A DNA stretch of 64,000 nt from Planctomycetota bacterium (GTDB lineage: Bacteria > Planctomycetota > UBA1135 > GCA-002686595). The position numbers were made by a program, and so were the translations under genes. Where the stretch lies: positions 49,785 through 113,784 of the forward strand of contig JAXMBZ010000005.1 in NCBI GenBank assembly GCA_046349615.1, read 5' to 3'. Shown one piece after another: positions 5,618 through 36,509 of this stretch. The notes below the pieces were generated by a model that saw only the letters and a list, made by a program, of their open reading frames with translations, ran no database searches and had not been told where the DNA came from. Numbering within the stretch: position 1 is the stretch's first letter; every line of letters starts with the position of its first letter.

Positions 5618-6484
5618 TCAGGAGCAGAGGAGCACGGACAGCTTGCGCCGGTACTGCTTCGTCAGCGGGTGCTCCTCGCCGAGCACGCCGAACGCGTCGA
5701 CGAGCGCCTTCTTCGGCGCGCCGCCTTCGAACCCGACGTCGAGCTGCGCCGCGCTCCAGAGCTCCTCGAGCGCGCGCTCGTTCTGGCGCGCCGCGAGCAG
5801 GCCGCGACCGAACGCGAGTCGCGCGCCGACGTCCTTCGGCTGCTTCTTCGCGGCCGCTTCGAGCGCGGCGAGGTCGCCCGCCTGCGCGGCGAGGTCGAGC
5901 AGGCTCTTCGCGACCTTCGCGGGCGCGCTCTCCTTCACCTCGTCGGGGAGTCCGTCGTGGAGCTTCTTCGCCTCGTCGGTGCGGCCCGAGAGCGCGCAGA
6001 GTCGCGCGAGCTCGGCGCGCGCGTTCGCGTCGCCGCCGCCCATGACGACGTGCGTGCGCAGGTGGATCACGGCCTTCTCGAGGTCGCCCTGCTTCTCGTA
6101 CTCGAGCGCTTCGGCGACCGGGTCCGCGGCCTTCTTCGCGCCGACGCCGTGGCGCGCGAGGAGTTCGCGGATCTTCGACTCGGGCTGCGCGCCGACGAAG
6201 CCGTCGACGACCTGACCGCCGCTCACGAGCACGACCGTCGGCACGCTTTGGACGCCGAACATGTCGGCGAGTTCGGCGTTCCTGTCGATGTCGATCTTCG
6301 CGAGCACGAACGCGCCCGCGTACTCCCCGGCGAGCTTCTCGAGCACCGGCCCGAGCGTCTTGCACGGCCCGCACCACGTCGCCCAGAAGTCGACGAGCAC
6401 GGGCGTTTCGAGGGAGCGCTGGACGACCTCCTTCTCGAAGGTCTGGGGCGTGATTTCGAGGACCGGGGCCGTCGGCAGGTTCAT
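5618..6484 (-). CDS. Thioredoxin fused to a TPR-like C-terminal domain (YbbN/CnoX-like chaperedoxin).
   Basis: The WCGPC active site lies in the N-terminal thioredoxin fold. The C-terminal helical repeats are TPR-like. It ends 17 nt upstream of coxS on the same strand. Confidence 0.8.
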   Translation of the reverse strand: MNLPTAPVLEITPQTFEKEVVQRSLETPVLVDFWATWCGPCKTLGPVLEKLAGEYAGAFVLAKIDIDRNAELADMFGVQSVPTVVLVSGGQVVDGFVGAQPESKIRELLARHGVGAKKAADPVAEALEYEKQGDLEKAVIHLRTHVVMGGGDANARAELARLCALSGRTDEAKKLHDGLPDEVKESAPAKVAKSLLDLAAQAGDLAALEAAAKKQPKDVGARLAFGRGLLAARQNERALEELWSAAQLDVGFEGGAPKKALVDAFGVLGEEHPLTKQYRRKLSVLLCS

Positions 6485-6601
6485 GGTGTCTCCTCGTCGC
6501 GGGGGGCAAGAAGCCTAACGACGATCGCGCGCGGGATCGAGCCCGGGCGGCGTTCCGCGCGGGCTTCGACCCGGAACGGGAGCGCGCCCACCGCGGACGG
6601 T

Positions 6602-8695
6602 TCAGCCGTCCTTCTTCGCCTCCGGATCGGCGTAGTCGAGCTCCCACGCCGGCATCGCGCCGCCCGGGCCCTGCAGGTAGTGCGCGAACCACTGGTGCAT
6701 GCGGAGCGAGTAGTCGAACTTCGCCGCGCACTTGCGGTTGCCGTGGCCCTCGCCGGGATAGAGGACGAGGCGCACCGGCGCCTTCCCGCGCAGCTTCAAG
6801 TGCCGGTAGAGCTCGCGCGACTGGCCCGGGTTGACGCGCGGGTCGTCCTTCCCGTGCAGGATCAGGAGCGGCGTCTTCGCGTCGCCCGCGTAGCGGATCG
6901 GCGAGCGGTCGAGGAAGAAGTTCCAGTCGTCCCACACGCGGTGGCGCGCGTGCACGAGGAACTCCTCGTTCGGGATGTCCGTCGTGCCGAGCTTGCTGAT
7001 CTTGTCGCTGATGCCGACGAACATGACGCCGGCCGCGAAGCGCTCGCTGAAGCGCGTCGAGCACCACGCCGTCGCGTAGCCGCCGTAGCTCCCGCCCGTC
7101 ACGCCGACCTTCTTCGCGTCGACGAGGCCCTTCGCGACGAGGTGGTCGACCGCGTCGACGAGGTCGTCGAACTCCTTGCCCGCGGGATCGCCCTGGCTGA
7201 GCATGCTGAACGCGACGCCGCGCCCCGTGCTTCCGCGGTAGTTCGGGTGGAACACCGCGAAGCCGCGCGCGGCGGCGACTTGTCCGGGCTTCGCGTAGGC
7301 GGTCTGCCAGCCGTTCTGCTCGTGCGCTTCGGGGCCGCCGTGCACGTAGAGGATCAGCGGATAGCGCGTGCCCGCGACCTCGTCGAGCGGGTGGATCAGG
7401 ACGCCCTGGAGCTCGAGCCCGTCGCGCGCCTTCCACGTGATCGTCTCCTGCTTCGCGAGCCGCTCGTTCGCGAACCACGGGTTCGAATCCGTGCGGCGCG
7501 CGGGCGCGGTCTCGCCGTGGCTCATCGTGAAGAGCTCGGGCGGATGCGTCGGCGCGCTCGCCACGAACGCGGCGTGCTGGCCGTCCTCGGAGAGCGACAC
7601 CTGCGTCATCACGTTCGTGCCGGCCGCGACGAGCGTCTTCCATTCGCCTCCGGCGGCAGGGACCTTCTCGAAGCTCGTCTCCGTGCCGCGGCTGACGACG
7701 GCGAGGAGGTCCGTCGGGGACGTCCACGCGAACGCGTCGACGTCGAGCGCCTTCCCCGCGGTGAGCTCGACGGGCTGTCCGCCGCTCGCCGGGCCGACGA
7801 AGAGGCGCGTCGCGCTCGGGTCGTGCACGTCGGCGCCGCCGAGGAACGCGACCTGCTTCCCGTCCGGACTCCAGTCGAGCTCGCCGAGCTTCCCTTCGTG
7901 CGCGAAGCGTGCGAGCTCCTGGCCCGACGCCGCGTCGACGACCTTCACCGTCTGCGCCATGTACTGGTCGTCGACGAGCGGTGTCGGCGCCGTGGAAACG
8001 AGCAGCGTCTCGTTCGTCGGGTTCCAGCGCACTTGATGCACGTGTCCGTCGATCGCGAGCGCGTGGGGCTTCGCGCTCTCGTCGAAGAGCGTCGCGACGA
8101 AGACGCGCTGGACCTTCGCGTCCTCCTCGTAGATCTCCTGGGTGAAGCCCTTCTCCTTCGCCTTCTTGCGCGCGTCGGCGTCGGGCTCCGTCGCGAGGAA
8201 CGCGACGCGTTTGCCGTCGCTCGCGAAGGAGTACGCGCCGACGCCCGTGTTCCACGCGACGGCCTTGCGCGCTTCGCCGCCGCCGATCGGGAGCGCATAG
8301 AGCGAGCTCGCCTTGTCGTCGCCGCGCTTCTGCGTGAACGTGATCGCGGAAGAGTCCGGCAGCCACGCGACGTTCGCGACGTCGGTCTTGCCCGAGACGT
8401 AGGCGCGCGGCGCGCTCCCGCCGCCCTCGCGCGCGACGACCCAGAGCTCGCTCCAGTTCGGCCCGTCGTCGTCGGTCATCGGTGCGCGCGGGACCGAGAG
8501 CGTGTACGCGATCCACTTCCCGTCCGGCGAGACGGCCGTGCCGGTCACGGCGCGCACGCGGGCGACGTCGAACGGCGTCCACACGGAGGTCGGAGCGAGC
8601 GCGTTCTCCGCGGAGGCAGGGCGCGGCGCCGCGGCCCAGACGGGGAGCGTGAGGAGAACGAGGGTCGACAGGATGAGTGTGCGCGCGTGCTTCAC
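6602..8695 (-). CDS. Secreted S9 family serine peptidase (prolyl-oligopeptidase / acylaminoacyl-peptidase type) with N-terminal beta-propeller.
   Basis: The C-terminal part of the long minus ORF contains a signal peptide (VKHARTLILSTLVLLTLPVWAAA), the GGSYGG nucleophile elbow, and Asp/His catalytic regions (HGKDDPRV, GEGHG). A GTG start was chosen at the signal peptide. Confidence 0.8.
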   Translation of the reverse strand: MKHARTLILSTLVLLTLPVWAAAPRPASAENALAPTSVWTPFDVARVRAVTGTAVSPDGKWIAYTLSVPRAPMTDDDGPNWSELWVVAREGGGSAPRAYVSGKTDVANVAWLPDSSAITFTQKRGDDKASSLYALPIGGGEARKAVAWNTGVGAYSFASDGKRVAFLATEPDADARKKAKEKGFTQEIYEEDAKVQRVFVATLFDESAKPHALAIDGHVHQVRWNPTNETLLVSTAPTPLVDDQYMAQTVKVVDAASGQELARFAHEGKLGELDWSPDGKQVAFLGGADVHDPSATRLFVGPASGGQPVELTAGKALDVDAFAWTSPTDLLAVVSRGTETSFEKVPAAGGEWKTLVAAGTNVMTQVSLSEDGQHAAFVASAPTHPPELFTMSHGETAPARRTDSNPWFANERLAKQETITWKARDGLELQGVLIHPLDEVAGTRYPLILYVHGGPEAHEQNGWQTAYAKPGQVAAARGFAVFHPNYRGSTGRGVAFSMLSQGDPAGKEFDDLVDAVDHLVAKGLVDAKKVGVTGGSYGGYATAWCSTRFSERFAAGVMFVGISDKISKLGTTDIPNEEFLVHARHRVWDDWNFFLDRSPIRYAGDAKTPLLILHGKDDPRVNPGQSRELYRHLKLRGKAPVRLVLYPGEGHGNRKCAAKFDYSLRMHQWFAHYLQGPGGAMPAWELDYADPEAKKDG

Positions 8696-19561: not shown

Positions 19562-20503
19562 TCAGACGTCTCCGCGCGCTTCGAGCGAGCGGTAGTACAC
19601 CGCCTGTCCGCCGCCCATCGCCTTCGCCGCGTGGAGCGCGCTCTCCGCGTGCAGTCGCAGCGTCTCGAGCCCGTCGAGGTCCGTTCCGTCGTACGTCTCG
19701 AACCCGATGCTGGTGCTGACGACGAGGCCGCTCGCGCGCGTCGAAAGCTGCGGCGAGAGGCGCGCGACCGCGTCGCGCAGTCTGCGCACGGCGTGCGCGG
19801 CCTCGATTCGGCCGGTGTAGGGGAGGAGCACGGCGAACTCGTCGCCGCCGAGACGTCCCGCGACGTCCTCCTGACGGAGGTTCTTGCGGATCGCCTCGCC
19901 GACCTTCTCGATCACGAGGTCGCCGACCGTGTGGTCCCACTGCTTGTTGATGCGACCGAAGCCGTCGAGATCGAGGATCAGGAGCGCGAGCTCGAAGTGG
20001 TGACGCTGCGCGGCGCTGACGTGCTCGACGAGCCGGCGCTGGAACGCGTCCGGGCGCAGGAGGTCCGTGCGGTCGTCGTGCGCCGCGCGGTGTTCGAGCG
20101 CGAGCACGCGCTGGCGTTCCGCGGCGAGCGCGAGCACGCGCTCGAGCCGCAGCCGGAACTCCTCGTCGCGCGCGTCGCGCGCGAGCCAGTCGATCCACGG
20201 ACTCGCGTGGGCTCGCAGGGCCTCGATCGCGGCCCGCGGATCGGTCGGATCCGCGAGCAGGAGCCCCGGCACACCGTCGCCCGCTCGGGCCCGGAGCGCA
20301 GCGAGCTCCTCGGCGCCGCCGCCGACCCAGGGGTCGAGCACGAACGCGTCGATCGGCCGCTCCAGGGCGGCGAGGGTGTCGCGGACCGAGGTCGTCCGTT
20401 CGACCGGCGTTCCGGCGTGGTCCCAGGCCCGTGCCCGCTCGGCGAGCCCGGCTTCGGGGCGTCCGCCGTGGTCGGCGAACAGGATCCGGAGGGGTGCGGA
20501 CAT
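19562..20503 (-). CDS. Response-regulator-like (receiver) domain fused to GGDEF diguanylate cyclase.
   Basis: The GGDEF motif is intact (RLGGDEFAVLL). An N-terminal REC-like fold is present. The start was set at MSAPLRILFADHG; the ORF start at 20602 gives an Arg/Gly-rich N-terminus. Confidence 0.8.
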   Translation of the reverse strand: MSAPLRILFADHGGRPEAGLAERARAWDHAGTPVERTTSVRDTLAALERPIDAFVLDPWVGGGAEELAALRARAGDGVPGLLLADPTDPRAAIEALRAHASPWIDWLARDARDEEFRLRLERVLALAAERQRVLALEHRAAHDDRTDLLRPDAFQRRLVEHVSAAQRHHFELALLILDLDGFGRINKQWDHTVGDLVIEKVGEAIRKNLRQEDVAGRLGGDEFAVLLPYTGRIEAAHAVRRLRDAVARLSPQLSTRASGLVVSTSIGFETYDGTDLDGLETLRLHAESALHAAKAMGGGQAVYYRSLEARGDV

Positions 20504-20725
20504 GGTGCGGAGCGGGTGGGACCCGAGATCGAAGTCTATCCCGCCCCGGGAAGTCCGGGCTCCGGTGGGTCCTGGCCCCCTTCGGTGGTGGACGGCCTCC
20601 ACAGGGCGAGCGGTGGGGGAAAGAGGGCCGACCCGCGCCGGTTCCGGCCCACGAATCGGTCCCCACCCGCGAAGGGGGCCGGGAGCTCGAGGGGGGCGGT
20701 GGGCGCGGCCCCGCCCGCGCTCGGA

Positions 20726-20753
20726 TTGACTCGCCCCCCTCCATGGATAGAAT
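20726..20753 (+). promoter_or_regulatory. Sigma70-like promoter candidate (TTGACT, 16-nt spacer, TAGAAT) upstream of rpsB.
   Basis: The sequence is ttgactcgcccccctccatggatagaat. It lies in a 550-bp intergenic region and would give a leader of about 300 nt before rpsB. Confidence 0.35.
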
Positions 20754-21056: not shown

Positions 21057-21923
21057 ATGGAAACCGTCAGCGTTCAAGAACTCATCGATGCAGGTGTGCA
21101 TTTCGGATGCCGCGTGTCGCGGTGGAATCCGAAGATGGCCCCGTACATCCACGGGCGGCGCAACCTCATCCACATCATCGACCTGCGCGAGACCATCAAG
21201 GGCATCCTCCGCGCACAGAACCTCCTCTACCACCTCGCCGCCGAAGGCTCGCCGATCCTCTGGGTCGGCACGAAGCGGCAGGTGAAGGGCGTGATCCACG
21301 AGGCCGGTGAAGCGACCGGCATGCCGATCGTGACCGAGCGTTGGATCGGCGGCACGCTCACGAACTTCTCCGTCATCCGCTCGCGCCTCAAGCGCCTCGA
21401 AGAGCTCGAGAAGATGGAGGAGGACGGCACGATCCACAACTACTCGAAGAAGATGATCAGCTCGATCCGCCGCGAGAAGCGCAAGATCGTGCGCAACCTC
21501 GGCGGCATCCGCGAGATGACGAACATCCCCGGCGCGATGGTCGTCGTCGACCCCGCGCGCGAAGCGAACGCGATCAAGGAGGCCCGCAAGATGGGCCTCG
21601 TGGTGATCGGCGTGCTCGACACGGACTGCGATCCGTCGGACGTCGACATCGTGATCCCGGGCAACGACGACGCGCTCAAGTCGGTGCGTCTGATGGTCGT
21701 CCAACTCACGAAGGCCGTCGTCGAGGGCCGCGCGAACCACTCCGAGCGCATGGCGTCGCTCGGCTCGGCCGAGAAGCGCGAAGACGGCACGATCGCCCCG
21801 GGCGACGAGCCGCGCCCGACGCGCGACAACAAGCTGCCCGACGGGCTCCAGCGCGGCGGCCGCCGCGACTTCGGCGGCGGTGGCGGCGAAGAGGAAGAGG
21901 GCGGCCGCGGCCGTCGGCGCTGA
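21057..21923 (+). CDS. rpsB: 30S ribosomal protein S2, with a Gly/Arg/Glu-rich C-terminal extension.
   Basis: The sequence METVSVQELIDAGVHFG...RWNPKM...GGTLTNF is unmistakable S2. The start was set at the internal ATG; the ORF's first 76 codons are junk. Confidence 0.9.
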   Translation: METVSVQELIDAGVHFGCRVSRWNPKMAPYIHGRRNLIHIIDLRETIKGILRAQNLLYHLAAEGSPILWVGTKRQVKGVIHEAGEATGMPIVTERWIGGTLTNFSVIRSRLKRLEELEKMEEDGTIHNYSKKMISSIRREKRKIVRNLGGIREMTNIPGAMVVVDPAREANAIKEARKMGLVVIGVLDTDCDPSDVDIVIPGNDDALKSVRLMVVQLTKAVVEGRANHSERMASLGSAEKREDGTIAPGDEPRPTRDNKLPDGLQRGGRRDFGGGGGEEEEGGRGRRR

Positions 21924-22128: not shown

Positions 22129-22989
22129 ATGGCTGAAATCACCGCGAAGATGGTCAACGACCTGCGTGAGCGCAGCGGCGCTCCGATGATGGACTGCAAG
22201 CGCGCGCTCAGCGCGACGAACGGCAACGTCGAGGCCGCGTTCGACGAGCTGCGCAAGGCCGGGCTCAAGAACGCCGAGAAGAAGTCGACGAACGAGATGG
22301 GCGAAGGGCGCCTCGCGGCCTTCGTCGCGCCGGGCGGACGCGTCGGCGCGATGGTCGCCGTCACGTGCCAGACGGACTTCGTCGCGAAGGGCGACGAGTT
22401 CCAGGCGCTGCTCGCGGAGCTCGCGAGGCAGATCGCCGAGAAGAACCCGGCGAACGCGGAGGCGCTCGGCGCGCTCAAGCACTCGAAGACGGGCGTCGCC
22501 CTGAGCGAGACCGTCAAGCTCCTCGCGGGCAAGACGGGCGAGAACATGGCGATCGCCAAGTTCCAGCGCTACGAGAACGCGCAGGGCCGCGTCGGCTGCT
22601 ACGTGCACCACGACGGCAAGAAGGGCGCGCTCGTCAACGTGACGAACGGCGCCGACGAGGCGGTCGCGACGGACTTCTTGAAGAAGCTCTCGATGCACGT
22701 CGTATCCGCGATGCCGATCCCGGTCGCGAACTCGCGCACGGAGATCCCGCAGAGCGAGGTCGACCGCGAGCGCGGCGTGCTGCTCGAGCTGCCCGACCTC
22801 AAGGGCAAGCCGGCGGAGCTGCAGGAGAAGATCCTGAAGGGCCGCATGGAGAAGTTCTTCGCCGAGCGCGTGCTCTCGGAGCAGGCGTGGATGCTCGACG
22901 ACAAGCTGACCGTGCAGAAGGCCGTCGAAGCGGCGCTCGGGAAGGGCGCCAAGATCGAAGGGTTCGCGCGCTTCCAGATCGGGAAGTGA
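22129..22989 (+). CDS. tsf: Elongation factor Ts.
   Basis: MAEITAKMVNDLRERSGAPMMDCKRAL is the UBA-like N-terminus and TCQTDFVAK the dimerisation core. An AGGAGA Shine-Dalgarno sits 7 nt upstream. Confidence 0.9.
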   Translation: MAEITAKMVNDLRERSGAPMMDCKRALSATNGNVEAAFDELRKAGLKNAEKKSTNEMGEGRLAAFVAPGGRVGAMVAVTCQTDFVAKGDEFQALLAELARQIAEKNPANAEALGALKHSKTGVALSETVKLLAGKTGENMAIAKFQRYENAQGRVGCYVHHDGKKGALVNVTNGADEAVATDFLKKLSMHVVSAMPIPVANSRTEIPQSEVDRERGVLLELPDLKGKPAELQEKILKGRMEKFFAERVLSEQAWMLDDKLTVQKAVEAALGKGAKIEGFARFQIGK

Positions 22990-23861
22990 ACGGCGATTCG
23001 TTCGACGAGGACGAGCTCAGGAAGTGGTTCGAACGCCACTTCCCGGGCTCGTCCGATCGTTTCGGCGGGATGAAGGACGCGCTGCGGCGCGCGAACGGCG
23101 ATGTCGACGCCGCGTTCGACGAGTTGCGCAAGGCGGGGCTCTCGGAGGAGCGCAAGCGCGGGACGGTCCACCGGAGCGGCGGCATCGCGACCGCGTTCGC
23201 CGCGGACGCTCGCGCGGGAGCGATCGTGCTGCTCGCGTGCCAGACGGACTTCGTCGCGCGGGGAGATTCGTTCCGCGCGCTGCTCGCGGAGCTCGCGCGG
23301 CTCGTGCTCGAGCATGCGCCGAGAGACGTCGAAGCGCTCGGAGCTCTCGAGCACCCGACGAGCGGCGTCACGGTGCGCGAGGCCGTGGAGCGGCTCGGGC
23401 GCGAGACCGGTGAGGAACTCAAGCTCGCGGCGTGCGAGCGCTTCGCGAACGCGACGGGGCGCGTCGGCGGCTACGTGCACCACGACGGCAAGAAGGGCGC
23501 GCTCGTGAGCGTGACCACGGGCGCCGACGAAGCGCAGGCGAACGCGTTCTTGAAGCTCCTGAGCATGCACGTCGTCTCCGCGTGGCCGACGCCGATCGTG
23601 GTGACGCGGGACGAGATCACGCCGGCGGTGATCGAACGCGAGCGCGGCGTGCTGCTCGAACTCCCTGACTTGAAGGGCAAGCCGGCGGAACTCCAGGAGA
23701 AGATCCTGAAGGGCCGCATGGAGACGTTCTTCGCCGAGCGCGTGCTCTCCGAGCAGGCGTGGATGCTCGACGACAAGCTGACCGTGCAGAAGGCCGTCGA
23801 AGCGGCGCTCGGGAAGGGCGCCAAGATCGACGGGTTCGCGCGCTTCCAGATCGGGAAGTGA
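22986..23861 (+). CDS. Second, divergent EF-Ts paralog in tandem with tsf (291 aa).
   Basis: Its GTG start overlaps the tsf stop (GTGA). The central region shares the EF-Ts core (LLACQTDFVARGD, GGYVHHDGKKGALV). The last ~85 aa are nearly identical to tsf. The N-terminal ~45 aa (VNGDSFDEDELRKWFERHFPGSSDRFGG) is unlike a standard EF-Ts. Confidence 0.7.
   Translation: MNGDSFDEDELRKWFERHFPGSSDRFGGMKDALRRANGDVDAAFDELRKAGLSEERKRGTVHRSGGIATAFAADARAGAIVLLACQTDFVARGDSFRALLAELARLVLEHAPRDVEALGALEHPTSGVTVREAVERLGRETGEELKLAACERFANATGRVGGYVHHDGKKGALVSVTTGADEAQANAFLKLLSMHVVSAWPTPIVVTRDEITPAVIERERGVLLELPDLKGKPAELQEKILKGRMETFFAERVLSEQAWMLDDKLTVQKAVEAALGKGAKIDGFARFQIGK
23610..23861 (+). repeat. Direct repeat: 3' ~250 bp of the tsf paralog is a near-identical copy of 22738..22989 (the 3' end of tsf).
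   Basis: Long identical nucleotide runs are shared, e.g. gagcgcggcgtgctgctcga, aagggcaagccggcgga, gagaagatcctgaagggccgcatggag, and ctgaccgtgcagaaggccgtcgaagcggcgctcgggaagggcgccaagatcga. Confidence 0.8.
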
Positions 23862-23992: not shown

Positions 23993-26614
23993 ATGCCGCG
24001 CGCACGTGTCCTCGCGATCGGGCTCGCGCTCGTGATGCTCGCGATCGCGATTGCGCTCGGCGTGCGGGCGAGTCGCGGGCACGCGCCCGAGGTCGCGCGA
24101 ACGAACGACGCCGCCGCGCGCGACGGCGCGACCTCCACGCTCGACGCGTCGAGTTCCGCGATGGATGCGCCGCGGAACGAACTCGCCGTCGCGCGCGTCG
24201 AGGCCGATCCGTTCGTGCACGAGCCCGCGTACGGGCCCGAGCTCCTGCTGCTCTTCGTCGACGAGGACGGTCGCGCGCTGCCGCGCACGAGCGTGCGCGT
24301 GCTCGATCCCGGGCGCGAGGCCTGGTGCTTCGAGCCCGATCCCGCCGCGCTCGGCGACGATCCGATCGCGGAGGTCGAGCGGCGCGGCGTCGCACGCGCG
24401 AGCGACGACAGTGGACGTCTGCGCCTCGCGCGCGCCGAGCGCCCCGTCGCGCTCCTCGCGCGTTCGGGCGATCGCGCGGCGCTGCTCGAGCTCGCGCCGG
24501 ACGCCGCGAGCCCGTGCGCGATCGTCCTGCATCCGAACCGCGCGCTCGACGTGCGTGTGCGCGACGAGGACGGCGCGCCGCTCGCCGGTGTGCCGCTCGA
24601 GCTGTGCGATCCCGACGACATCACGCCCCTGTGGCGCGGCGCGACGGACGAGCACGGTCGCGCGCGCGTCGAGCGCGTCGCGATCGCGTGGGACGATCCC
24701 GAGCTCGCGGTGCGCGTCACCGCGGGCACGCTGCGGCCCGCGCTCCTCTCGCGCTTCGTCCCGAGCGACTTCGACACCGGTCCGGTCGAGTTCGTCGTGC
24801 CGCGCGGCGATCCGCTCGAGCTCCGCCTCGTCGACGGGCAAGGAAACGTCGTCCCGCTCGCGGGCGAGCTCCGGGTGACGTGCGGTTACCGTGGTCGCGA
24901 GCGTCCGCGCATGTTCGGCGACCCGGAGTCGTTCTCCGTGCCGGTGCGCGACGGGCGCGCGCGGCTCGCGAGCCTCGTGCCGAAGGACGAGACGTTCTCC
25001 GTCGTCTTCGAGGGCATCGATTGGACGATCGACGCGGCGCGCGTGAACCCGCTCACACGGCGCGTCGATCTGCCTCTCGAACCCGCGGGCCGCGTCGTGC
25101 GTCTCCGCGTGCTCGGACCCGCGCGCGAACCGTGGACGGATCGACAGCTCGAACTCCGCGAGCGCTACGAGCCCGCGGGGCACGGGAGCGGCCACACACG
25201 CTCGCGCGCGCCGCTCCGGACGGACGCGGAGGGGCGCATCGTGCTCCTGCGCTCGACGTGGGAAGGAACGGACGTGGCGCAACTGCTCGTCGACCCCGAC
25301 GCGCATCCGCCGCTGTTCGCGTACGTGCCGACCTCGGACGCGCGCGAGCTCGAGCTCGTGCTCCAGCCCGCGCCGCTCGCGCTCTCCGGCCGAGTCGTCA
25401 CGGAGCGCGGTGCGCCGCTTCCGCGCGCAACCGTCGAGCTCGCCGAGCTCGGTCCCGATTCAGCGGGCACGGCCGAGTGCCTCGGCGTCGCGCGCACCGA
25501 TGCGGACGGGCGCTTCGAAGCGTTCGGGTACGGCCGCACGGGACCGGTCGCCGTCTCCGTCGCGCGCGACGGCCACTCGTTCCCCTTCGCGGACGGCGAG
25601 CGCAGCACGTTCCCGCGTTCCATCGGCGCCTACGGCGACCGCGACGTCACCGTGCGCGTCGTCGTCGGCGCGGAGCTCGATGCGTGGATCCTCGTCGATC
25701 CCGCGTGGCTCGACGGCGGCGTGAAGGTCGCGCTCGTCGATGCGGAGGACGCAGAGCGCGACGGTGAAGAGGACGCGGAGCCGGGCGTCGCGGAGGACGA
25801 GGAGACCGGCATCGAGGCCGAGCTTCGACGCGCGGGCGACCGCCTCGTCGCGTCGTTTCGCGGTCTCGACGCGGGCGAGTACGCGCTGCGCGTCGCGACG
25901 CCGACCGCGCGCGCCCCCGTGTTCGTCTCTGCCATCGTGATCCCCGCCGAAGGGCTCGCGCGCGATCCGCGCCTCGAGCCGCTCGACCTGCGCGGCGCGC
26001 TCGGCGATCCCGCGGCCGTCGTCGTCGCCGAACTGCCGACGCTGCGCTTCCAGGACGACGCCGCGCGCGCGTTGGAGCACGGCGTGTGGTGCTACTCCGT
26101 CGACGGCGAATGGCACTCGCCCGTGCCCTGGCTCGGCGGAGAGGTCACTGTGTTCGAGCCCTTCGAGCGCATCGCGGCGTGGAGCCCGGGCCGCTCGCTC
26201 GTCGTGCGGCCCGCTCCGCGCGTTTCGGAGGTCTGGACGCTGCCGCCCGCGCGCCGCGTCACGGTGCGCGTCGACGTGCCTGCGAGCCTGCGTGCGAGCA
26301 CGATCACGTACTCCGCCGTCGTCGAGCTCGACGGCGACTCGAATGCGGCCCTCGCCGAACTCGTCTGGTCCGAGGTCTCGACCGCGCTCGACGCGCGCGG
26401 CGAGGCGCGGTTCGAGCTGCCGGGGTCCGGGCGATGGAAAGCGACGGTGGAAGCGCGCTGGGAGGGCGACGAAGGCGTGCTCCACGAGCTCGAGACGTTC
26501 GTCTTCGAGCTGAGCGAGGACTTCGCCGCGTCGACGCGCTTCGAGTTCGCGGCGGACGAGGAGCGCTGGCTCGCGGTGCTGCGCGAGGACGACGCGCCCC
26601 TCGGTCCGCGGTGA
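23993..26614 (+). CDS. Large N-terminally membrane-anchored hypothetical protein (873 aa) with repeated carboxypeptidase-regulatory / Ig-like beta-sandwich-type segments.
   Basis: A TM/signal anchor (MPRARVLAIGLALVMLAIAIALGV) is present. Motifs such as DEDGAPLAGVPLEL and TDADGRFEAFGY recur. The start was chosen at the ATG after the terminator hairpin; the upstream in-frame ORF region is a read-through of the tsf-paralog frame. Confidence 0.5.
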   Translation: MPRARVLAIGLALVMLAIAIALGVRASRGHAPEVARTNDAAARDGATSTLDASSSAMDAPRNELAVARVEADPFVHEPAYGPELLLLFVDEDGRALPRTSVRVLDPGREAWCFEPDPAALGDDPIAEVERRGVARASDDSGRLRLARAERPVALLARSGDRAALLELAPDAASPCAIVLHPNRALDVRVRDEDGAPLAGVPLELCDPDDITPLWRGATDEHGRARVERVAIAWDDPELAVRVTAGTLRPALLSRFVPSDFDTGPVEFVVPRGDPLELRLVDGQGNVVPLAGELRVTCGYRGRERPRMFGDPESFSVPVRDGRARLASLVPKDETFSVVFEGIDWTIDAARVNPLTRRVDLPLEPAGRVVRLRVLGPAREPWTDRQLELRERYEPAGHGSGHTRSRAPLRTDAEGRIVLLRSTWEGTDVAQLLVDPDAHPPLFAYVPTSDARELELVLQPAPLALSGRVVTERGAPLPRATVELAELGPDSAGTAECLGVARTDADGRFEAFGYGRTGPVAVSVARDGHSFPFADGERSTFPRSIGAYGDRDVTVRVVVGAELDAWILVDPAWLDGGVKVALVDAEDAERDGEEDAEPGVAEDEETGIEAELRRAGDRLVASFRGLDAGEYALRVATPTARAPVFVSAIVIPAEGLARDPRLEPLDLRGALGDPAAVVVAELPTLRFQDDAARALEHGVWCYSVDGEWHSPVPWLGGEVTVFEPFERIAAWSPGRSLVVRPAPRVSEVWTLPPARRVTVRVDVPASLRASTITYSAVVELDGDSNAALAELVWSEVSTALDARGEARFELPGSGRWKATVEARWEGDEGVLHELETFVFELSEDFAASTRFEFAADEERWLAVLREDDAPLGPR

Positions 26615-26874: not shown

Positions 26875-27591
26875 ATGGCCACTCCGTATCAGCGCGTCCT
26901 GCTCAAGCTCTCCGGTGAGGCCCTCGGCGACCCCGCGACGGGGCACGGGATCGACCCCGAGGCGGTGCAGAAGATCGCGCGGCAGGTCGCGCGCGTAGCA
27001 GGGCTCGGCGTCGAGATCGCGATCGTGGTGGGGGGCGGCAACATCCTCCGCGGTGCCGAGTTCAGCAAGCTCGGCGGCCACCGCGCGAACGCCGACTACA
27101 TGGGCATGCTCGGCACCGTGATCAACGGGCTCGCGCTCTCCGACGCGCTCGAGCAACAAGGCCTCGCGACGCGCGTCGCCACCGCGATCGAGATCCGCCA
27201 GGTCGCCGAGCCCTTCGTGCGCAAGAAGATCCTCGCGCACCTCGAGAAGGGGATCGTCGTCATCCTCTCCGCCGGCACCGGCAACCCGTTCTTCACGACG
27301 GACACCGCCGCCGCGCTGCGCGCGACCGAGCTCGAGTGCGAGGTGCTGCTCAAGGCGACCAAGGTCGACGGCGTCTACACCGCCGACCCGAAGAAGGACA
27401 AGAACGCGAAGCGCTACGAGGAGATCACCTCGATGGAGGCGATCCAGAAGGGCCTGCGCGTGATGGACGGCACGGCGATCACGATGTGCATGGAGAACAA
27501 GCTGCCCGTGATCGTGTTCAACCTGTTCGAGGAAGGAAACCTCGAGCGTGTGGTGCGCGGCGAACGCCTCGGCACCCGGATCGTGAGCTGA
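26875..27591 (+). CDS. pyrH: UMP kinase.
   Basis: The sequence MATPYQRVLLKLSGEAL...VVGGGNILRG is diagnostic. It runs 238 aa from the internal ATG. Confidence 0.9.
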   Translation: MATPYQRVLLKLSGEALGDPATGHGIDPEAVQKIARQVARVAGLGVEIAIVVGGGNILRGAEFSKLGGHRANADYMGMLGTVINGLALSDALEQQGLATRVATAIEIRQVAEPFVRKKILAHLEKGIVVILSAGTGNPFFTTDTAAALRATELECEVLLKATKVDGVYTADPKKDKNAKRYEEITSMEAIQKGLRVMDGTAITMCMENKLPVIVFNLFEEGNLERVVRGERLGTRIVS

Positions 27592-27593
27592 AG

Positions 27594-28154
27594 ATGACCA
27601 CGCAAGACATCACCAAGAACACCAAGGAGAAGATGGAGAAGGCGGTGCACCACCTCGCGGAGCACCTCAAGCAGATCCGCACGTCGCGCGCGTCGAGCGC
27701 GCTCGTCGACAACATCAAGGTCGACTACTACGGCGTGCCGACTCCGCTCTCCCAGATGGCGTCGATCTCGATCCCCGAGCCGCGGCAGATCCTGATCAAG
27801 CCCTTCGACGGCTCGATCCTGAACGAGATCGGCAAGGCGATCCAGAAGAGCGACCTCGGCATCCAGCCGCAGAACGACGGCAAGGTGCTGCGCCTCACGA
27901 TGCCGCCGCTCTCCGGCGACCAGCGCAAGAAGTACGCGGCGAAGGTCAAGGAGATGTGCGAGGAGACGCGCGTCGCGCTGCGCAACGTCCGTCGCGACGA
28001 GAACAAGGTCGCGGACGCGGAGCTCAAGGGCGGCGGCCTCACCGAGGACCAGTCGAAGAAGCTCCACGACGACATCCAGAAGCTCCTGAAGGAGTACGAG
28101 GACAAGGTCACGCAGCTCATGGACAAGAAGACCGCCGAGATCATGGAGGTCTGA
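27594..28154 (+). CDS. frr: Ribosome recycling factor.
   Basis: The product is a 186-aa protein with a typical Frr sequence (LKQIRTSRASSALVDNIKVDYYG). It begins 3 nt after pyrH. Confidence 0.9.
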   Translation: MTTQDITKNTKEKMEKAVHHLAEHLKQIRTSRASSALVDNIKVDYYGVPTPLSQMASISIPEPRQILIKPFDGSILNEIGKAIQKSDLGIQPQNDGKVLRLTMPPLSGDQRKKYAAKVKEMCEETRVALRNVRRDENKVADAELKGGGLTEDQSKKLHDDIQKLLKEYEDKVTQLMDKKTAEIMEV

Positions 28155-28300: not shown

Positions 28301-28373
<73 letters not shown>

Positions 28374-28461
28374 CCCGCCCCTCCGCCCGCGCGGAGTCGG
28401 GCGGACGCTTGACCGAGAGGGGACCCCGGAGTACTTTCTCGCCCCGCTTTTCTGAAAACGC

Positions 28462-28537
28462 GCCCACGTAGCTCAGTTGGCAGAGCAGGTGACTCTTAAT
28501 CATCAGGTCGTAGGTTCGAGCCCTACCGTGGGCACCA
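28462..28537 (+). tRNA. tRNA-Lys (anticodon CUU), with CCA encoded.
   Basis: The acceptor gcccacg/cgtgggc pairs perfectly. The anticodon stem is ggtga/tcatc with loop ctcttaa. The T arm is gtagg-ttcgagc-cctac, followed by the discriminator A and CCA. Confidence 0.75.
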
Positions 28538-36431: not shown

Positions 36432-36509
36432 GGTCCCATCGTCTAGCCCGGCCTAGGACACCAGGTTTTCATCCTGGCGACAGGGGTTCAAATCCCCTTG
36501 GGATCACCA
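36432..36509 (+). tRNA. tRNA-Glu (anticodon UUC), with CCA encoded.
   Basis: The D arm cgtctagcccggcctaggacacc closely parallels the E. coli tRNA-Glu D arm. The anticodon stem is ccagg/cctgg with loop ttttcat. The T arm is agggg-ttcaaat-cccct. The acceptor ggtccca/tgggatc has one G-U pair. Confidence 0.8.

Follow-up and report, generated by a model that had tools for sequence, protein, structure and literature searches.

A divergent tandem copy of the elongation factor Ts gene with a 3' end shaped by gene conversion in uncultured Planctomycetota

Introduction

The gene for elongation factor Ts (EF-Ts), tsf, is treated as a universal single-copy gene. How should a bacterial genome be understood in which two tsf genes follow each other directly? 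This question is raised by a 64,000-nt stretch of a Planctomycetota genome (contig JAXMBZ010000005.1, positions 49,785 to 113,784), which we analysed at its full length and refer to as the window; its G+C content is about 71 %. A first reading of the letters alone (hereafter the sequence-only reading) had noticed the pair, here named tsf1 and tsf2, and had described the second gene as a divergent paralog whose 3' end is a near-identical copy of the first. Our analysis leads to an account that we hold to be probable, namely that tsf2 is an old, selected, accessory and partly converted auxiliary EF-Ts. The evolutionary part of this account is much firmer than its functional part.

Results

Two EF-Ts genes in tandem

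The tandem arrangement, the 4-nt overlap and the 291-aa second open reading frame (ORF) described by the sequence-only reading were borne out by our analysis, and both products score above the curated EF-Ts cut-off. The argument depends on the following features.

22129..22989, + strand: tsf1, canonical EF-Ts, 286 aa; TIGR00116 196.7 bits (cut-off 104), PF00889 176 bits
22986..23861, + strand: tsf2, divergent EF-Ts paralog, 291 aa; TIGR00116 137.2 bits, PF00889 155.6 bits
22986..23072, + strand: N-terminal segment of tsf2 with predicted remodelling, residues 1-29 (helix 1, carrying a KWF insertion, plus a longer loop)
22765..22989, + strand: conversion tract copy R1, 3' end of tsf1 (coiled-coil hairpin and last strands); 215/225 identical to R2
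23637..23861, + strand: conversion tract copy R2, 3' end of tsf2; 215/225 identical to R1
23457..23501, + strand: short high-identity patch in tsf2 (GRVGGYVHHDGKKGALV); 96 % identical to 22585-22629

The GTG start codon of tsf2 at 22986 overlaps the TGA stop codon of tsf1 as GTGA. The tsf1 product is identical to MFO1010176.1, and the exact 291-aa product of tsf2 is annotated by NCBI as MFO1010177.1, 'translation elongation factor Ts'. The two proteins share 177 of 263 residues (67 %) in a BLASTP alignment with E = 3e-119. In tsf2, the TIGR00116 match (137.2 bits against a cut-off of 104.05) runs over residues 29-290, and the PF00889 match (155.6 bits against a cut-off of 27) covers model positions 1-204 of 204. 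The blocks CQTDFVA[KR]GD and YVHHDGKKGALV, which had been named as common to the pair, were found in both proteins, and the peptide WFERHFPGSSDR is specific to tsf2.

Region-restricted gene conversion at the 3' end

The direct repeat formed by 22738..22989 and 23610..23861 is identical at 231 of 252 positions (91.7 %), and within it a tight tract (22765..22989 versus 23637..23861) reaches 215 of 225 (95.6 %), with a longest unbroken run of 80 nt. Given the background identity of 71 % in the rest of the aligned gene, the probability of 10 or fewer mismatches in 225 nt is 1e-20. The sequence-only reading had called the C-terminal ~85 aa nearly identical even at the nucleotide level; the near-identity holds at both levels, but its true extent is the last 74 aa, 72 of which are the same. 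Extra short patches of high identity lie at 22585-22629 (96 %) and 22222-22266 (89 %), and the tsf2 counterpart of the first, 23457..23501, may represent either conversion over a short stretch or a motif under strong constraint.

Such identity might also arise without gene conversion if purifying selection were stronger on the C-terminal part of EF-Ts, and the C-terminal 74 residues are indeed the most conserved stretch among tsf1 orthologs too, with non-synonymous divergence (dN) of 0.01-0.14. However, the synonymous sites are homogenised as well: third codon positions are identical in 66 of 74 cases inside the tract (89 %) and in 104 of 151 outside it (69 %; p = 4e-5).

The separate phylogeny of the core and the converted 3' end that the sequence-only reading had suggested was run with bootstrapped neighbour-joining trees on a codon alignment, divided into region A (tsf1 codons 24-150), region B (151-212) and region C (213-286), and the regions gave opposite groupings. 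In region A, a single clade with 99 % bootstrap support unites the tsf2 sequences of the window and of two related loci, L001 and L006, to the exclusion of every tsf1. In region B, the L001 tsf2 pairs with the L001 tsf1 (100 %), and in region C every tsf2 pairs with the tsf1 of its own genome (71-83 %). Four-point sums concur with these trees. The tsf2 clade in region A, together with the own-genome pairing in the 3' parts, implies that the duplication predates the split of the lineages and that the 3' parts have been homogenised independently since. The tract boundaries vary by genome: the tract begins at codon 213 in the window and runs from codon 152 to the end in L001 (87-98 % nucleotide identity).

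Within the window's species, polymorphisms in the 3' repeat are common to both copies, in strain-specific patterns. Alleles of the R2 type occur in R1 of L090 and L091 (for example, an Asp typical of tsf2 in tsf1), patterns are mixed in L088 and L095, and the protein P0123 is a tsf2 with a tsf1-type end. Since alleles are shared between R1 and R2 among strains, we consider that conversion is ongoing and proceeds in both directions. Together with the homogenised synonymous sites, the opposite pairing of the 5' and 3' parts and the shifting tract boundaries, this passage of alleles between the copies makes selection acting alone a highly improbable cause of the 3' identity. The 'recent gene conversion' of the sequence-only reading thus stands as conversion, on tree discordance, synonymous-site excess and polymorphism exchange, but 'recent' is valid only in a relative sense, as 10 differences remain. 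The proportion of synonymous differences per synonymous site (pS) in the tract, 0.136, is about that between the window and its nearest tsf1 relatives.

Occurrence among relatives

The sequence-only reading had proposed to look for the tsf pair in related genomes. It is present in L088, L095, L090, L001/L002 and, in diverged form, L006, and absent from the others. The 90 %-identity protein cluster of tsf2 holds four further full-length 291-aa variants from other assemblies. The DNA of L088, L095 and L090 is 97.4-99.0 % identical to the window; the tsf1 and tsf2 of L088 and L095 overlap by the same 4 nt, and the L090 contig opens with the tsf1 3' end only, followed by tsf2 with the same overlap. 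In L001/L002, two JGI metagenome contigs, a tsf1 that is 76 % identical to that of the window is followed by a 273-aa tsf2 with the GTGA overlap, and the N-terminal motif FDEDELR[KE]WFER...GSS is common to the tsf2 of the window and of L001. L006 has a tsf1 75 % identical to that of the window and a very diverged tsf2 (5887-6548), which starts with ATG 25 nt past tsf1.

The second copy is absent from three assemblies, L091, L092 and L093, whose rpsB-tsf1 stretch is 99.3 % identical to the window; past the tsf1 stop codon they have a hairpin and then a very different allele of the large protein encoded downstream. It is also absent from L089, a 562-kb contig with otherwise the same synteny (tsf, large protein, pyrH, frr), from L007, the sole close relative among loci recovered from a set of one genome per GTDB species, and from L003/L004 and L005. 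Because tsf2 is missing from near-identical strains, we regard it as accessory and dispensable. The large protein itself, 873 aa in the window, is hypervariable, with 83 % aa identity to its L089 ortholog and 32 % to the allele in L091/L092, and the segment from tsf1 to pyrH behaves as a recombining variable region.

A second tsf within ~4 kb was found in 0 of 80 other genome loci. When 5.8 billion proteins were searched with profiles of the tsf2-specific halves, only the window cluster, P0015 from L001 and P0140 from L006 outscored tsf1 proteins, and an exact-pattern scan of 241 million metagenome records for back-translated FDEDELRxWFER returned the L001 contig only. In the databases searched, sequences of the tsf2 type are limited to three lineages.

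One assembly, GCA_044222285.1, holds both haplotypes: L090 (JBGANM010000246.1) shows the tsf1 3' end, tsf2 and the large protein, and L091 (JBGANM010000194.1) shows rpsB, tsf1, the hairpin and the divergent large protein. Either two strains have been binned together, or tsf2 is polymorphic in the population. Separately, positions 494-674 of L096 (ERZ773282 NODE_13100, coverage 5) are a 181-nt piece 98 % identical to window positions 22905-23085, i.e. the end of tsf1 and the start of tsf2. This piece sits between Poly_export-like and ATP-grasp-like coding sequence, and the 190-aa 'protein' called there opens with the tsf2 N-terminus. As a clue to the origin of that N-terminus we dropped P0157/L096, because the contig is most likely chimeric.

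Metagenome-assembled genomes (MAGs) can be mis-joined at repeats, and the second copy, or its 3' end, might accordingly be an assembly artefact, a duplicated or chimeric join. The two contigs of GCA_044222285.1 that continue differently after tsf1, and the chimeric L096 with its piece of the tsf1/tsf2 junction, would fit such an origin. However, the two copies differ at 33 % of their residues and hence do not represent a duplicated read path, R1 and R2 differ at 10 of 225 positions with no identical run longer than 80 nt, and assemblies of different samples in ENA, NCBI, JGI and Logan data arrived independently at the identical arrangement. An artefact is therefore scarcely credible to us, and jointly with selection acting alone on the 3' end it takes up only a very small share of the probability. 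Assembler collapse as the cause of tsf2 absence was ruled out: the 562-kb contig of L089 has the same flanks, and L091-L093 are three independent assemblies in which a different allele with its own hairpin follows the tsf1 stop codon, with no jump from tsf1 to R2.

Fold, catalytic motif and N-terminus of tsf2

The AlphaFold2 model of tsf2 has a mean predicted local distance difference test score (pLDDT) of 92 and a predicted template modelling score (pTM) of 0.83. In a Foldseek search of this model against the PDB, the top 20 matches were all EF-Ts structures, and the best superposition was with 4pc7_C (template modelling score 0.75 normalised to the query and 0.83 to the target; root-mean-square deviation 3.0). 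As modelled, tsf2 retains the full EF-Ts fold, including subdomains N and C and the coiled-coil hairpin. Its TDFV motif is T87-D88-F89-V90, whose T, D and F do not vary across an alignment of 58 sequences; the Asp and Phe of this motif in EF-Ts intrude into the nucleotide site of elongation factor Tu (EF-Tu) (PMC9529903). Retained in tsf2 are T87, D88, F89, G142, E143, Y163 and H165. Among 56 canonical EF-Ts, 18 columns of the non-converted region are conserved to 90 % or more; tsf2 matches 16 of them, compared with about 45 % of the variable columns.

According to the sequence-only reading, an unrelated acidic segment had replaced the bundle of the N-terminus, which resembles a ubiquitin-associated (UBA) domain. 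This was not borne out. Three N-terminal helices are predicted for tsf2 (residues 8-18, 23-35 and 40-49, pLDDT 69-86), as for tsf1 (6-16, 20-29 and 34-52). The sequences of helices 2 and 3 are retained, and homology to the tsf1 N-terminal domain is clear from residue 30 on (KDALRRANGDVDAAFDELRKAGL); alignment with tsf1 fails for about the first 28 residues only. In one alignment (A1), the E-L-R of tsf2 helix 1 aligns with the family-invariant L-R, and K30 in helix 2 aligns with an invariant Lys. In the complex of the M. tuberculosis EF-Ts, Arg13 and Lys24, alignable with the Arg of this E-L-R and the helix-2 Lys, bond to EF-Tu (PMC9529903). A UBA domain model (PF00627) gave no match to tsf2 and 20.9 bits to tsf1, which is also under the cut-off.

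The differences from tsf1 lie around helix 1. Its amino-terminal half is acidic, a KWF insertion follows E-L-R, and the first loop is lengthened and no longer contains the G-A-x-M-M-x-C stretch. At a position of the linker behind helix 3 where the family has a nearly invariant Lys, the tsf2 of the window has Arg, that of L001 Ser and that of L006 Ala. On the model, the tsf2 N-terminus is better described as a remodelled helix 1 and first loop inside a retained three-helix domain. A phmmer search with the 30-aa N-terminus against 1.84 billion representatives returned only P0157 (93 % identical) and weak matches to repeat proteins. In both the window and L001, the N-terminal domain and subdomain N are tsf2-specific, and subdomain C and the coiled coil stay tsf1-like. 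In established structures of canonical EF-Ts, the N-terminal domain and subdomain N face the G domain of EF-Tu. The partition into a distinct N-terminal part and a tsf1-like C-terminal part may thus be functional.

Selection on tsf2

Our selection test rests on close strains. The comparison of the window with L088 over tsf2 codons 1-217, all of them outside the tract, yields 18.5 synonymous and 12.5 non-synonymous differences, giving pS = 0.111, a corresponding non-synonymous proportion (pN) of 0.026 and pN/pS = 0.23 (Fisher p = 4e-5); the between-strain pN/pS of tsf1 is ~0.11. Five assemblies of the window's species encode the full 291-aa tsf2 product, and no indel disrupts the frame in any of them. 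Thus, tsf2 is under purifying selection in the window's species, which indicates that its protein is used. Over a longer distance, 8 of the 12 codons of the N-terminal motif are identical between the window and L001, 3 differ synonymously (AGG/CGG, CGC/AGA, CTC/CTG) and 1 non-synonymously. As the motif is kept through synonymous changes of Arg and Leu codons, this segment appears to be translated in this frame in both genomes.

Two measures were rejected for deep comparisons. The dN/dS between the window and L001 or L006 was not used as a selection test, since the Nei-Gojobori (NG86) method compresses synonymous divergence (dS) when the G+C content at third codon positions (GC3) is ~0.95, and tsf1 itself gives ~0.4. 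Pairwise maximum-likelihood dS was saturated (4-70), and those estimates were kept as relative rates only. As relative rates, deep comparisons give tsf2 a non-synonymous divergence 2.2-3.7 times as high as tsf1, and its subdomain N has diverged ~2- to 4-fold faster than that of tsf1.

Several observations weigh against an auxiliary EF-Ts kept by selection. In L001, tsf2 (6001-6822, P0015) has lost the second coiled-coil helix through a 31-aa in-frame deletion. The L006 tsf2 has lost most of its C-terminal third, is frameshifted by -1 near 6255 and shows pairwise rate ratios of ~0.8-1.4; this copy does look like a pseudogene. At least three other lineages have no tsf2. Between the same two strains that yielded the selection test, pS in tsf2 codons 1-217 is 5 times that in tsf1 codons 1-212 (0.020), a disparity for which codon bias on tsf1 or a recombination boundary close to where tsf1 and tsf2 meet could be responsible. 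The constrained tsf1 could also act, through conversion, as a donor of conserved-looking sequence, but our pN/pS was taken outside the tract. In a second alignment (A2), the first 29 positions of tsf2 keep none of the 5 near-invariant residues of the family, and the altered near-invariant N-terminal residues, including Gly-Ala-x-Met-Met-x-Cys, could mean that EF-Tu binding is weakened or lost. Finally, whatever is said here about tsf2 function is inferred from sequence. On the inactivating lesions that the sequence-only reading had thought decisive, the outcome is divided: the five same-species assemblies have none, whereas L006 and L001 carry the frameshift and the deletion just described. 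The coiled coil was apparently lost independently in these two, and that of the window tsf2, which lies inside the conversion tract, may have been re-installed from tsf1.

A decaying, non-functional duplicate, its frame held open by the 71 % G+C and its 3' end repaired by conversion, would explain part of this evidence. Long spurious ORFs are common on both strands of the window, and the gene is absent in L003, L005, L007, L089 and L091, damaged in L001 and L006 (where the rate ratio is near 1), faster than tsf1 at non-synonymous sites and lower in GC3. Such decay is nevertheless distinctly unlikely in our view, because the pN/pS outside the tract, the undisrupted frame in five assemblies and the 16 of 18 conserved columns all contradict it, and the N-terminal motif has survived ~50 % overall divergence by way of synonymous codon changes. 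For the window's lineage, the pN/pS, the conserved columns and the synonymous motif changes lead us to reject a pseudogene.

Operon context and expression signals

The order rpsB-tsf1-tsf2 ... pyrH-frr is the expected EF-Ts context (rpsB-tsf operon), in which the single-copy expectation is violated. The surrounding features are listed below.

20726..20753, + strand: sigma-70-like promoter candidate upstream of rpsB, TTGACT-16-TAGAAT; 10/12 consensus matches, 0.0 expected in shuffles
21057..21923, + strand: rpsB, ribosomal protein S2, 288 aa, leading the operon; PF00318 on orthologs in L001, L005, L006 and L091
23899..23924, + strand: GC-rich hairpin followed by UGCAUUU, candidate operon terminator 38 nt past the tsf2 stop codon; perfect palindrome, -33 kcal/mol, z = -3.3
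23993..26614, + strand: membrane-anchored protein, 873 aa, CarboxypepD_reg domain, weak bMG3/Big_1 matches; shares the variable segment with tsf2 but has no part in the tsf function
26875..27591, + strand: pyrH, 238 aa, conserved right flank; PF00696 on orthologs
27594..28154, + strand: frr, 186 aa, conserved right flank; PF01765 on orthologs

The promoter candidate upstream of rpsB is a consensus match only. A Shine-Dalgarno sequence, GAGGAG, lies 7 nt before the ATG of tsf1, and none was found at a useful distance from the GTG of tsf2. Given this lack and the overlap of start and stop codons, tsf2 is most likely made by termination-reinitiation, below the level of tsf1. The GC3 of tsf2 (0.92, versus 0.97 for tsf1) points in the same direction as the missing Shine-Dalgarno sequence, namely to lower output. 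We also considered a programmed -1 frameshift that would fuse tsf1 and tsf2, and rejected it, since the sequence ...ATC GGG AAG TGA contains no X XXY YYZ slippery heptamer.

A terminator scan for T-runs made no call between 20.5 and 24.5 kb, and the hairpin past tsf2 has no U-run. Similar hairpins with GCAUUU or GCCUUG stand directly 3' of the single tsf in L007 and L091. The resemblance of the hairpin after tsf2 to these post-tsf hairpins of relatives suggests that tsf2 lies inside the operon, ahead of the likely terminator.

A few further observations concern the neighbourhood. The S2 protein of the window has a long C-terminus rich in Gly, Glu and Arg (...GGRRDFGGGGGEEEEGGRGRRR) and measures 288 aa, against 261-272 aa called in relatives. 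Upstream of rpsB lies a divergent GGDEF-domain gene (19562..20602, - strand), with synteny kept in L001, L006, L089 and L091; in L089 and L091, a PilZ gene follows further upstream. Two tRNA-Lys genes (anticodons TTT and CTT) occupy 28301-28375 and 28462-28537 (+ strand), just past frr, and a tRNA-Glu gene (TTC) is found at 36432-36509 (+ strand). An Rfam scan of the whole window gave nothing beyond these three tRNAs.

Discussion

A proposed role for tsf2

In the history that we propose, tsf2 would have arisen when tsf was duplicated in tandem, long ago, within a narrow clade of uncultured Planctomycetota. The gene would be translated by reinitiation inside the rpsB-tsf operon, to a lesser extent than tsf1. 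Its product would keep the fold and the catalytic Thr-Asp-Phe-Val wedge and alter the parts that face the G domain, that is helix 1, the first loop and subdomain N. The 3' part, encoding subdomain C, the coiled coil and the last strands, would have been overwritten repeatedly by conversion with tsf1, in both directions. Loss of tsf2 might proceed by recombination between the near-identical direct repeats, although the tsf2-less strain examined at 99.3 % identity has a replaced downstream segment instead. On this basis, the most likely role of tsf2 is that of an auxiliary, low-abundance exchange factor for EF-Tu, whose N-terminal contacts, and with them its affinity or kinetics, would be altered.

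The protein may instead have acquired a new function, as the partner of another EF-Tu-like GTPase, as a regulator that sequesters EF-Tu, or as a spare or decoy against toxins or phages. In favour of this, tsf2 is a strain-variable gene beside a hypervariable surface-type protein, as is often the case for accessory genes, and the EF-Ts coiled coil is exploited by CdiA-CT tRNase toxins (PMC9071432), a structure that the tsf2 of L001 and L006 is without. However, the coiled coil of the window tsf2 is full and nearly identical to that of tsf1, and the PADLOC defence models match neither tsf2 nor its neighbour. No tuf gene or second EF-Tu-like G domain was found in the 64-kb window, and the kept catalytic wedge and most contact positions point to ordinary EF-Tu binding. 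We consider a new function unlikely. A specialised isoform in a strain-variable segment, whose N-terminal domain and subdomain N retune or redirect nucleotide exchange (towards a distinct GTPase, under stress, or in response to toxin or phage targeting), is unlikely as well; in that case selection would keep the 5' part distinct, and conversion would keep the interface of the coiled coil and EF-Tu domain 3 tsf1-like.

The tsf1/tsf2 pair is a rare case of a core translation factor with an old, selected second copy that is present or absent between 99 %-identical strains. The pair is also a clean natural example of region-restricted gene conversion, with a homogenised 3' part and a distinct 5' part. 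In addition, there is a practical consequence. TIGR00116 is one of the GTDB bacterial marker proteins (PMC12281837), and as both tsf copies pass its cut-off, genomes of this clade report a duplicated marker, at the risk that it is misread as contamination or that the marker is dropped from phylogenomic alignments. If tsf2 truly has different kinetics or a different partner, it would open a new way to study the tuning of EF-Tu recycling; for now, this is a hypothesis about a bacterium not yet cultured. The tsf1/tsf2 pair is unusual for an assumed single-copy marker, without a demonstrated new mechanism.

Comparison with known systems

No paper on bacterial EF-Ts paralogs or duplications was found in the literature searched. 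With canonical EF-Ts (TIGR00116 / PF00889; E. coli 1EFU, M. tuberculosis 7VMX), tsf2 shares the predicted fold, the TDFV wedge and the rpsB-tsf ... pyrH-frr context. Unlike canonical EF-Ts, it is a second copy that is probably coupled to the first, has a helix 1 and loop that appear remodelled, evolves 2-4 times faster than tsf1 and varies among strains. The short EF-Ts of Thermus thermophilus (1AIP / 1TFE) has no coiled coil, and the tsf2 of L001 and L006 likewise is without part or all of the hairpin. The window tsf2 differs from the Thermus protein in its complete coiled coil, which was probably re-installed from tsf1 by conversion. Thermus EF-Ts works as a homodimer, and nothing here suggests the same for tsf2.

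Among other elongation factors, EF-G1A/EF-G1B of Pseudomonas aeruginosa (PMC3832671) likewise represent a diverged second copy kept next to a housekeeping one; distinct activities have been measured for that pair. The closest likeness in evolutionary behaviour is to tufA/tufB (PMC6053082, PMC5485169), translation-factor genes that are also duplicated, recurrently converted and differentially lost among lineages. The marks of concerted evolution are seen in the tsf1/tsf2 pair, namely own-genome pairing inside the tract with ortholog pairing outside it, synonymous homogenisation and allele exchange, and tsf is not among the genes listed for long-lasting concerted evolution (PMC6053082). The tuf copies are dispersed, homogenised over their whole length and functionally equivalent, whereas tsf1 and tsf2 stand in tandem and only their 3' part is homogenised, with the 5' part remaining distinct.

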